IMG/VR virus record: IMGVR_UViG_2531839195_000016
Coordinates: 1-37,454 of that record
Length of the DNA: 37,454 nucleotides
DNA from: a virus
Taxonomy: Duplodnaviria > Heunggongvirae > Uroviricota > Caudoviricetes
Reading direction: 5' to 3' (one strand)
Made by a program: the position numbers. How positions within the stretch are numbered: position 1 is the stretch's first letter; each line of letters begins with the position of its first letter. Shown here in pieces: positions 15,401-18,400 of this stretch.

Positions 15401-18400
15401 CAGTGGGATGCCGGACATTACCGGACAACTGCTGCGGCACCTCAACTCCGATTTGATGAACGCAATATTCACAAGCAATGCGTGGTGTGCAACCAGCACA
15501 AAAGCGGAAATCTCGTTCCGTATCGCGTCGAACTGATTAACCGCATCGGGCAGGAAGCAGTAGACGAAATCGAATCAAACCATAACCGCCATCGCTGGAC
15601 TGTCGTAGAGTGCAAGGCGATCAAGGCAGAGTACCAACAGAAACTCAAAGACCTGCGAAATAGCAGAAGTGAGGCCGCATGACGTTCTCAGTAAAAACCA
15701 TTCCAGACATGCTCGTTGAAGCATACGGAAACCAGACAGAAGTAGCACGCAGACTGAAATGTAGTCGCGGTACGGTCAGAAAATACGTTGATGATAAAGA
15801 CGGGAAAATGCACGCCATCGTCAACGACGTTCTCATGGTTCATCGCGGATGGAGTGAAAGAGATGCGCTATTACGAAAAAATTGATGGCAGCAAATACCG
15901 AAATATTTGGGTAGTTGGCGATCTGCACGGATGCTACACGAACCTGATGAAAAAACTGGAGACGATAGGATTCGACACCAAAAAAGACCTGCTTATCTCG
16001 GTTGGCGATTTGGTCGATCGCGGTACAGAGAACGTCGAATGCCTGGAATTAATCACATTCCCCTGGTTCAGAGCTGTACGTGGAAACCATGAGCAAATGA
16101 TGATTGATGGCTTATCAGAGCGTGGAAACGTCAATCACTGGCTACTTAATGGCGGCGGCTGGTTCTTTAATATCGATTACGACAAAGAAATTCTGGCTAA
16201 AGCTCTTTCCCATAAAGCAGATGAACTTCCGTTAATCATCGAACTGGTGAGCAAAGATAAAAAATATGTCATCTGCCACGCCGATTATCCTTGTGACGAA
16301 TACGAGTTTGGAAAGCCAGTTGATCATCAGCAGGTAATCTGGAACCGCGAACGAATCAGCAACTCACAAGACGGGATCGTGAAAGAAATCAAAGGCGCGG
16401 ACACGTTCATCTTTGGTCATACGCCAGCAGTGAAACCACTCAAATTTGCCAACCAGATGTATATCGATACCGGCGCAGTGTTCTGCGGAAACCTCACATT
16501 GATTCAGGTACAGGGAGAAGGCGCATGAGACTCGAAAGCGTAGCTAAATTTCATTCGCCAAAAAGCCCGATGATGAGTGACTCACCACGGGCCACGGCTT
16601 CTGACTCTCTTTCCGGTACTGATGTGATGGCTGCTATGGGGATGGCGCAATCACAAGCCGGATTCGGAATGGCTGCATTCTGCGGTAAGCATGAACTCAG
16701 CCAGAACGACAAACAAAAGGCTATCAACTATCTGATGCAATTTGCACACAAGGTATCGGGGAAATACCGTGGTGTGGCAAAGCTCGAAGGAAATACTAAG
16801 GCAAAGGTACTGCAAGTGCTCGCAACATTCGCTTATGCGGATTATTGCCGTAGTGCCGCGACGCCTGGCGCAAGATGCAGAGATTGCCACGGTACAGGTC
16901 GTGCGGTTGATATAGCCAAAACAGAGCAGTGGGGGAGAGTTGTCGAGAAAGAGTGCGGAAGATGCAAAGGCGTCGGCTATTCAAGGATGCCAGCAAGCGC
17001 AGCATATCGCGCTGTAACGATGCTAATCCCAAACCTTACCCAACCCACCTGGTCACGCACTGTTAAGCCGCTGTATGACGCTCTGGTGGTGCAATGCCAC
17101 AAGGAAGAGTCAATCGCAGACAACATTTTGAATGCGGTCACACGTTAGCAGCATGATTGCCACGGATGGCAACATATTAACGGCATGATATTGACTTATT
17201 GAATAAAATTGGGTAAATTTGACTCAACGATGGATAAATGCACTCGTTAAATAAAGCCCTGAGTTAATAGCTCGGGGCTTTTTGCGTTTTAAGCACGGCC
17301 TTTCTGAAAGCACATCAAGCCAAATACCAGACAGACAAAAATAATCACCTTATCCGCTTGGCTACGGTGCGGTGTGCTTTGCATAAAAGAAAACCAGCGC
17401 AATGGCTGGCTTCGTGAAAGCGGGTGGCAAGAGGCTGCGCTAACAACCTCATGCCGTTTTGCCCGTGCATATCGGTCACGAACAAATCTGATTACTAAAC
17501 ACAGTAGCCTGGATTTGTTCTATCAGTAATCGACCTTATTCCTAATTAAATAGAGCAAATCCCCTTATTGGGGGTAAGACATGAAGATGCCAGAAAAACA
17601 TGACCTGTTAGCCGCCATTCTCGCGGCAAAGGAACAAGGCATCGGGGCAATCCTTGCGTTTGCAATGGCGTACCTTCGCGGCAGATATAATGGCGGTGCG
17701 TTTACAAAAACAGTAATCGACGCAACGATGTGCGCCATTATCGCCTGGTTCATTCGTGACCTTCTCGACTTCGCCGGACTAAGTAGCAATCTCGCTTATA
17801 TAACGAGCGTGTTCATCGGCTACATCGGTACTGACTCGATTGGTTCGCTTATCAAACGCTTCGCTGCTAAAAAAGCCGGAGTAGAAGATGGTGGAAATCA
17901 ATAATCAACGTAAGGCGTTCCTCGATATGCTGGCGTGGTCAGAGGGAACAGATAACGGACGACAGAAAACCAGAAATCATGGTTATGACGTCATTGTAGG
18001 CGGAGAGCTATTTACTGATTACTCCGATCACCCTCGCAAACTTGTCACGCTAAACCCAAAACTCAAATCAACAGCAGCCGGGCGCTATCAGCTTCTTTCC
18101 CGTTGGTGGGATGCCTACCGTAAGCAGCTTGGCCTGAAAGACTTCTCTCCGAAAAGCCAGGACGCTGTGGCATTGCAACAGATTAAAGAGCGTGGCGCTT
18201 TGCCGATGATTGATCGCGGTGATATCCGTCAGGCAATCGACCGTTGCAGCAATATCTGGGCTTCGTTGCCCGGGGCTGGTTATGGCCAGTTCGAGCATAA
18301 GGCTGACAGCCTGATTGCAAAATTCAAAGAAGCAGGCGGAACGGTCAGAGAGATTGAGGTATGAGCAGAGTAACCGCGATTATCTCCGCTCTGGTTATCT

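Follow-up and report, generated by a model that had tools for sequence, protein, structure and literature searches.

A lambda-type late-gene switch in compact HK022/P22-type form, as predicted from sequence, and the structured leader ahead of its holin gene

The late control region

The DNA analysed here is a 37,454-nucleotide (nt) Caudoviricetes sequence, record IMGVR_UViG_2531839195_000016 of IMG/VR and hereafter called the window, in which a late promoter and a structured leader lie between a lambda-like Q antiterminator gene and the holin gene S. A sequence-only reading had described a lambda-like pR'/qut followed by two hairpins in this leader, leaving it unclear which of the two is the terminator that Q overrides. 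The features on which the present argument turns are as follows.

16525..17148, plus strand: late antiterminator gene Q, 207 amino acids (open reading frame, ORF; 206/207 residues as in lambda Q, 99.5%)
17191..17219, plus strand: late promoter pR', -35 TTGACT, -10 TAAATT, spacer 17, enclosing the Q-binding part of qut (promoter scan and lambda alignment)
17226..17248, plus strand: transcript start A17226, pause element AACGAT (17226-17231) and 5'-terminal stem-loop, +1..+23 (homology, folding)
17253..17290, plus strand: hairpin 1, the probable tR'/t-late intrinsic terminator, stem +28..+56, U-tract +54..+65 (terminator scan, folding, P22 homology)
17426..17455, no strand assigned: hairpin 2, with hypervariable sites 17430, 17435, 17436 and 17451 (folding, conservation)
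17581..17904, plus strand: holin/antiholin gene S with the dual start MKM (ORF; annotated homologues in HK140, HK022 and lambda)

The lambda-like pR'/qut was borne out, as TTGACT-17-TAAATT at 17191-17219 lies downstream of a lambda-type Q and was the sole promoter-like site found by the promoter scan on the plus strand over 3 kb. When the region was aligned with lambda pR'-tR', the check proposed in the earlier reading, window and lambda agreed at every base downstream of Q as far as +9, promoter and Q-binding region included; five loop differences followed, CTCGTT (+18..+23) was identical again, and the two sequences diverged after +23 and rejoined at CTTCGTGAAAGCGGG (17410), ~170 nt ahead of S (17581). 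The predicted start A17226 corresponds to lambda 44587 and to the P22 position given in its annotation as the 5' end of the late RNA, and the counterpart of pR'/qut is annotated as promoter or qut in the HK140, P22 and epsilon34 records. The element AACGAT at +1..+6, which we take to be the sigma-dependent, -10-like pause element of lambda pR', is the same in lambda and P22. In three relatives (L234, L303 and L310; loci are cited here by L numbers) the stem of the 5' stem-loop is preserved by a double change from C-G to U-A, and by analogy with mRNA-stabilising 5'-terminal stem-loops this structure may shield the late message. An upstream Q, a sigma-70 promoter with a Q-binding element, a pause element and a predicted intrinsic terminator ahead of the late genes, which together mark a lambda-type Q-dependent region, were thus all found, and with a probability of roughly 0.8 the region would be the lambda late-gene switch in its compact HK022/P22-type form.

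Hairpin 1 as the candidate tR'

The strong hairpin with a U-tract that had been placed at 17254..17290 was confirmed at 17253-17281, with the tract extending to 17290. Its arms (17253-17266 and 17268-17281) form 13 pairs, two of them G.U, with a G/C core at 17256-17278, and are followed by TTTTTGCGTTTT to 17290; this stem was the longest among the sites listed by the terminator scan. The predicted +1..+65 RNA folded at -23.3 kcal/mol (z = -4.62), which none of 200 shuffled sequences equalled.

The homologous hairpin was compared in two P22 records (BK000583 and X78401). One record places it at +31..+59, counted from its late RNA 5' nucleotide, under the label "t late or tR'; antiterminated by gene 23 protein", and the older record labels it 'terminator tR'; terminator tQ'. 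The stems of hairpin 1 and the P22 terminator are identical, and the loop alone differs. In the hybrid loci L018, L046 and L083, hairpin 1 and its T-tract directly abut GCACAACAGGTAAGAG, the sequence found 3' of lambda tR', so that hairpin 1 holds exactly the tR' slot. The same module was also found behind other late promoters (L234, L242, L303 and L310). Lambda Q and P22 gp23 have been reported to be interchangeable (PMC8022706), and short late-promoter RNAs have been reported for lambda, 21, phi80, 82 and P22 (PMC7547250). On the strength of the P22 annotation, the hybrid tR' slot, the reuse behind other promoters, the interchangeable antiterminators and the short late RNAs, hairpin 1 is in all likelihood the Q-overridden terminator tR', which would yield a ~60-nt RNA without Q. 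The very short leader RNA that the sequence-only reading had raised as a question is accordingly supported as a prediction. The finding as stated is an ordinary one, because the compact tR' of HK022/P22-type phages is already known and is annotated in P22, a close relative.

By analogy with lambda and P22, from whose biology we infer the start site, pause, termination and read-through, RNA polymerase would start constitutively at pR' (A17226) and pause via the -10-like AACGAT element, as it does at lambda pR'. Without Q it would stop at hairpin 1 and release a ~60-nt RNA with a 3' end at about +58..+61, made up of the 5' stem-loop, an AAAUAA linker and the terminator hairpin. With Q, the antiterminator would load at qut, and the polymerase would pass hairpin 1 and continue into S, R, Rz and the virion genes.

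Hairpin 2 in the window and its relatives

The second hairpin, described earlier at ~17420..17465 with a 9-base-pair (bp) stem and an A/A mismatch, is present: its arms are GGCAAGAGG (17426-17434) and CCTCATGCC (17447-17455), which place A17430 opposite A17451, and a GTTTTG tail follows. A second mismatch is formed by C17435 and A17446. Folded alone, the hairpin of the window was not beyond chance (z = -1.68; 13/200 shuffles folded equally well). Over 15 diverged leaders (<95.5% identical), double compensatory changes were found at 7/12 of its pairs, and we regard the hairpin as real because of this conservation with compensatory changes and not on account of the window fold alone. At the same position L321 has a wholly different stem sequence.

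Among 115 gap-free relatives, 17412-17580 was nearly invariant, the main exceptions being four sites in hairpin 2; 17439 and 17530 varied too, at 5-6%. The alleles at the four sites in these relatives, and the combinations at the central pair over 161 distinct contexts, were:

17430: A 59, G 34, T 22
17435: T 86, C 29
17436: T 101, C 14
17451: C 83, A 32
17430/17451: A/C 69, G/C 27, T/C 26, G/A 22, A/A 15, T/A 1, A/G 1

The central pair was Watson-Crick in 28 of the 161 contexts (17%). All main combinations follow both lambda-type and HK022-type upstream sequences, implying that change at 17430/17451 is recurrent. The A/A of the window is an ordinary minority allele at a freely varying position, and the central mismatch described earlier is nothing special to this copy, the position being hypervariable throughout the family. 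Quasi-palindrome correction was considered as a cause of the variable central pair and rejected, as it predicts perfect pairs, yet 83% of contexts are mismatched. As a separate observation, the loop and the stem top of hairpin 2 have been inverted in separate lineages, namely in L208 (Shimwellia; TTGTTAGCGCAA vs TTGCGCTAACAA) and in P22-like leaders (CTGTTGACGCAG vs CTGCGTCAACAG; L264-L267, L284, L291 and L312 against L316). Such recurrent loop inversion is a template-switch signature in a quasi-palindrome.

The plus-strand leader around hairpin 2

Three further structured elements were delineated on the plus strand between hairpin 1 and S.

17309..17378, plus strand: helix M domain, 17309-17316 pairing with 17371-17378 (RNAalifold, pair counts)
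17411..17482, plus strand: domain around hairpin 2, comprising an enclosing helix, an outer stem and the inner stem 17426-17437/17444-17455 (covariation, folding)
17511..17573, plus strand: GGATTTGTTC (17511-20) pairing with GAGCAAATCC (17553-62), adjoining the sdi stem CCCC(17561-64)/GGGG(17570-73) 5' of S (pair counts)

Helix M showed double changes at 5/8 pairs, and its non-Watson-Crick cells (G.U 11 vs A.C 3) favour the plus strand. Around hairpin 2, TTCGTG (17411-16) pairs with CACGAA (17477-82) in the enclosing helix, and the outer stem GCGGGT (17420-25)/GCCCGT (17461-66) covaries to AUGGGC/GCUCAU, with non-Watson-Crick cells that again favour the plus strand (G.U 18 vs A.C 1). Nearest to S, GGATTTGTTC and GAGCAAATCC formed 100% standard pairs in 15/15 lineages, and sdi, which we take to be the known lambda S feature, covaries. 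An alternative partner of GGATTTGTTC is the upstream GAACAAATC (17480-17488), where a C.A occurs in 11/15 diverged leaders; the alternative pairings may constitute a structural switch in the 5' untranslated region of the holin gene. This structured holin leader with hairpin 2 appears never to have been analysed before.

Two side observations concern the middle part of the leader. In lambda, CCGTAGCCA and TGTCTGTC (44952-44969; L003:1153-1170) are the reverse complement of GACAGACA and TGGCTACGG of the window (17329-17336 and 17362-17370), a match due either to chance or to a leftover of the mid-leader segment in inverted orientation. A minus-strand ORF at 17289-17402 between two terminator-like hairpins encodes 37 hydrophobic amino acids (..VIIFVCLVFGLMCFQKGRA) and has a toxin-like look; it is probably no gene, because it is interrupted in HK022 and P22. 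No Rfam match (E up to 1) was obtained on either strand of window positions 16000-19000, bar a spurious snoU85, in a search that covered isrJ, STnc100, AsxR, AgvB and Esr41. The homologous stretches of the leaders of P22, L232, L234 and lambda gave chance-level Rfam matches only (Leu_leader 24 bits, Chlorobi-1 17.5 bits; gathering score 50 each).

A candidate RNA on the opposite strand

The substitution pattern around hairpin 2 hints at selection on the antisense strand, where the following elements were predicted.

17382..17494, minus strand: hypothetical ~113-nt cis-antisense RNA, made up of helix X, I' (hairpin 2 on the other strand), a U-rich linker, and H3' with its U-tract (folds, wobble pattern)
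17380..17413, minus strand: H3' hairpin GAAGCCAGC/GCUGGUUUU, followed by UUUUAUG, with the shape of an intrinsic terminator (terminator scan)
17456..17488, minus strand only: helix X, 17456-17467 pairing with 17477-17488 (pair counts)

The non-Watson-Crick cells in the inner stem of hairpin 2 were A.C (or C.A) in 23 cases vs G.U in one, and because they are A.C, not G.U, this stem forms wobble pairs on the minus strand only. The opposite pattern, with G.U on the plus strand, was seen in the leader helices M, E, outer stem, a'/a2 and sdi. Helix X was 96.8% paired, and its G.U pairs were conserved in 12-14 of 15 lineages. For the minus-strand element per-sequence folds were used, because the MAFFT alignment divided H3', and I' in some rows, between two registers. 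In these folds (17381-17494 and equivalents), the same architecture of X, I', a 12-nt U-rich linker, H3' and a U-tract recurred in nine lineages, with the folding energies given below.

Minus strand, 9 lineages: -42 to -52 kcal/mol, z -3.9 to -6.9
Plus strand, 9 lineages: -33 to -41 kcal/mol, z -1.8 to -4.4

The consensus energy likewise was -31.5 for the minus strand vs -19.0 for the plus strand. The H3' stem (17394-98/17405-09) covaries from CCAGC/GCTGG to CCCGC/GCGGG, its U-tract UUUUCUUUU is invariant and without a role on the plus strand, and the A-run at 17385-17393 was invariant in 15 lineages. H3' also had a positive minus-strand d-score, a d'Aubenton-Carafa-type terminator score, and was called a terminator by the scan. 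A minus-strand RNA with conserved structure and strand-specific wobbles, and with its own predicted intrinsic terminator, can thus be drawn.

A promoter for such an RNA was more equivocal. A TA[C/T]NNT hexamer (17506..17501; TACTGT in the window) lies 13-16 nt ahead of helix X in 8/10 scored leaders, and in L307 and L321 a 20-nt insertion sets it 34 nt from helix X. Scored at this fixed position, the putative promoter ranked within the top 5% for all lineages, in the top 1.5% in the window and in the top 0.01% in L307/L321 (TTGTCT-17-TATGGT). Against this, the -10-like position was chosen post hoc, and its conserved bases may serve a plus-strand stem. A free position weight matrix scan of the window minus strand over 17414-17760 found nothing above background (best 5.0 vs a random median of 7.1), the consensus promoter scan gave none on the minus strand here, and reading of the sequence revealed no CII-type TTGC-N6-TTGC at the -35 position.

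Natural variation also affects these elements. In five loci (L006, L013, L038, L050 and L081) a 71-nt deletion, equivalent to window ~17465-17535, fuses GCCGTTTTGCCC to TTATTCCTAAT; lost with it are the putative antisense promoter, the 5' arm of helix X and the inverted repeat at 17480-17520. These loci may be natural knock-outs or defective prophages.

Alternative readings of hairpin 2

Several explanations of hairpin 2 were weighed against that of one helix in a conserved leader module. As the Q-overridden terminator, a part for which the sequence-only reading had left it a candidate, it fared poorly, and comparison answers that question in favour of hairpin 1, through the P22 homology and the hybrid tR' slot. 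The scan flagged hairpin 2 neither in the window nor in lambda, and the d-scores, which serve as a ranking only, because the proven terminator lambda tR' itself scores -21 with modern energies, were as follows.

Hairpin 1: +21; P22 t-late: +18
Hairpin 2: window -44; lambda -22; P22 -42

Scores of hairpin 2 in relatives ranged from -22 to -42. Its U-tract has only four U and decays in relatives, which carry TGATTTG, TGATCTG, ATCTTG or CAGATCA; on the plus strand the T-tract is an internal loop closed by the covarying outer stem, and a conserved, pairing-free U-tract was thus not found there. It might instead serve as a backup intrinsic terminator, in tandem with tR' and likewise overridden by Q, which would curb leaky holin expression in lysogens. 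Such a backup would be biologically sensible, as leaked S is lethal, and the lambda homologue has a perfect 10-bp stem (-18.7 kcal/mol, compared with -12.0 for the twice-mismatched stem of the window) followed by GUUUUG. Luk and Szybalski reportedly described tandem terminators downstream of lambda p'R in 1983. The missing scan calls and low scores, the unconserved and base-paired T-tract, and a stem that is weakened by most natural alleles nevertheless make a backup terminator unlikely. Signals of the T7 R1.1 type have an asymmetric internal loop between a lower stem and an upper stem-loop, an arrangement that hairpin 2 and its outer stem (~18 bp, with a 5-nt loop on the 3' side) share and conserve with covariation, so that they could form an RNase III site of the late mRNA, parting the leader from the lysis message. 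The title of a 1988 paper by Daniels et al., cited in PMC7547250, speaks for RNase III sites somewhere in lambda late RNA. The A.C mismatches in the inner stem of most lineages would weaken the plus-strand substrate, and we consider an RNase III site at this position fairly unlikely. That the region is protein-coding (plus ORF 17374..17529 or minus ORF 17289..17402), with incidental hairpins, is suggested by a hypothetical protein annotated here in HK140 (HK140_065, 51 amino acids), mEp234, Sf101 and ECP1, and by the variable sites 17430, 17436 and 17451 being third codon positions of the plus ORF. Both ORFs are broken in relatives: the plus ORF is cut by a frameshift and a stop in P22 and Citrobacter L232 and shows zero synonymous variation in 26 codons past hairpin 2, and the minus ORF is interrupted in HK022 and P22/epsilon34, HK140 retaining its 3' part only, with the frame shifted. 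The coding readings were therefore rejected as extremely improbable.

The remaining alternative, which is compatible with hairpin 1 being tR', makes hairpin 2 the middle stem-loop I' of the ~113-nt cis-antisense RNA, transcribed leftward from ~17494 to the H3' terminator (~17382). The strand-specific wobbles, the stronger minus-strand folds and the terminator-like H3' speak for it. On the other side, H3' is missing from lambda and lambda-type leaders, the plus-strand outer stem and enclosing helix are likewise under selection, no Rfam family matched on either strand, and the only antisense transcripts reported in the Gally/LF82 transcriptome paper (PMC9928086) lie over Q. The prophage transcriptome literature (BTP1, Gally/LF82) and the Pas small RNAs beside holin genes also yielded nothing for this locus. 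We regard this role for hairpin 2 as possible but doubtful, and only tentatively propose such an RNA opposite the late leader 5' of the holin gene in HK022/P22-type prophages, with its X-I' part in lambda. If made, it could attenuate transcripts that leak through in lysogens or lower their stability, for instance via RNase III cleavage of the duplex. It would then provide a safety catch or timer against late-gene leakage, a control of the holin resembling that by type I antitoxins. An antisense RNA opposite the S/13 leader would then be a new regulator of lysis timing and leak control in the best-studied phages.

Taken as a whole, the comparisons favour hairpin 1 as tR' and suggest that hairpin 2 is most probably not a regulated terminator, but one helix of a conserved multi-helix pre-holin leader module common to lambda and P22. 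Several points weigh against this interpretation. Termination and Q read-through are, for this sequence and for HK022-type leaders alike, inferred by analogy, and the annotation of the P22 terminator may have a similar basis in part. The d-score is poorly calibrated with modern energies, as its value for lambda tR' illustrates; the G/C-rich 10-bp stem and GUUUUG of lambda hairpin 2 may permit some termination there; and the wobble pattern of the inner stem misfits a plus-strand RNA helix.

Distribution and leader types

The whole 431-nt region was 96-98% identical to HK022, HK140, HK544, mEp234, mEp213, Sf101, Gally and others, while its leader-specific part matched phage N7 at 99.5% identity and, along its entire length, P22 and epsilon34 at ~80%. 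The leader was present in 334 of 5,426 complete E. coli genomes (about 6%). Leader types were tallied in 83 loci and the window, 80 of the loci having a Q identical to that of the window; 40 short leaders, 37 lambda 6S/tR' leaders and four of a third type were counted. The loci with identical Q were divided about half and half between the lambda 6S/tR' and the short leader. The same Q/qut module is thus naturally paired with a leader terminated at 194 nt or, by prediction, at ~60 nt. The third type (L034, L042, L055 and L074, after the same Q) reads AAGAATGGCAGATTTATATC.GTTCACATTCTTTC.GTTTTT, with an altered pause element and a hairpin and T-run from about +3.

Most 'species' matches to lambda S are contamination. 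Of the genome-contig matches concerned (L204-L231, L233, L235, L237-L241, L245 and L254), some were complete lambda contigs of 48.5 kb in assemblies of Pseudomonas, Shewanella, Oceanobacillus and the like. Further ones were ~3.5-kb contigs that start inside the hairpin 2 loop behind T-rich adapter-like sequence (..TTTTTTGCGCTAACAACCTCCTGCC..) and look like a sequencing-control lambda amplicon.

Beyond the leader, the window is, as judged over positions 6000-30000, a P22-like (podovirus-type) lambdoid prophage, the nearest relatives being IME10, HZ41 and APC_JM3.2 (~97% identity over ~60% of the query). The terminator scan also found a strong terminator-like hairpin 3' of Rz (18828-18848).

Comparison with known systems

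In Stx phages, the pR'-tR' transcript StxS acts as an Hfq-dependent small RNA (PMC7547250). The predicted ~60-nt RNA would resemble StxS and isrJ in being a short RNA transcribed constitutively from an antiterminated late promoter as far as its terminator; no sequence or Rfam similarity to either was found. StxS has prompted the view that the by-product RNAs of pR'-tR' transcription supply material from which regulatory small RNAs can arise, and the two leader lengths found behind one Q bear on this view. In Citrobacter sp. wls619, an Rfam isrJ match (L232:1166-1243, plus strand; 45.5 bits, gathering score 37) lies exactly at the position expected of a pR'-tR' short RNA, 3' of a 229-amino-acid non-lambda Q-like ORF; its terminator AAAAAGCCCCGGTTAATCGCTGGGGCTTTTT resembles hairpin 1 of the window and is followed by the lambda post-tR' sequence ATCTGCACAACAGGTAA. 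This suggests that IsrJ is a late-promoter by-product RNA.

Were the minus-strand reading right, the candidate would share with lambda OOP and paQ and with P22 sar and a23 the features of a small structured RNA with a weak promoter of its own, an intrinsic terminator and full complementarity to a phage mRNA. Its site opposite the pre-holin late leader sets it apart from these and is not described in the literature searched. The likeness to T7 R1.1-type signals extends over the lower stem, the asymmetric internal loop, the upper stem-loop and a length of ~two helical turns; a difference is that the upper stem of the candidate site usually has plus-strand A.C mismatches.

In the P late/t late region of P22, the whole pR'-to-holin leader is homologous (~80% identity, same architecture), and hairpin 1 differs in its loop but not in its stem. 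Hairpin 2 of P22 has A-T as its central pair and an A.C elsewhere in the stem, its tail is TGATCTG, and the sdi stem sequence differs. With the lambda late region the window shares Q (99.5%), the promoter, the Q-binding element, AACGAT and the 5' stem-loop to +23, as well as the last ~170 nt ahead of S, including hairpin 2 and sdi. Between these shared parts, lambda has its terminator at about +150..+194 and ~250 nt from tR' to the shared module, whereas the window has its predicted terminator at +28..+56 and another segment of 120 nt that contains helix M and H3. The two mismatches in hairpin 2 of the window have no counterpart in the perfect hairpin of lambda. Since the terminator of the window comes earlier, its terminated RNA would be ~60 nt long, compared with the 194 nt of lambda 6S.

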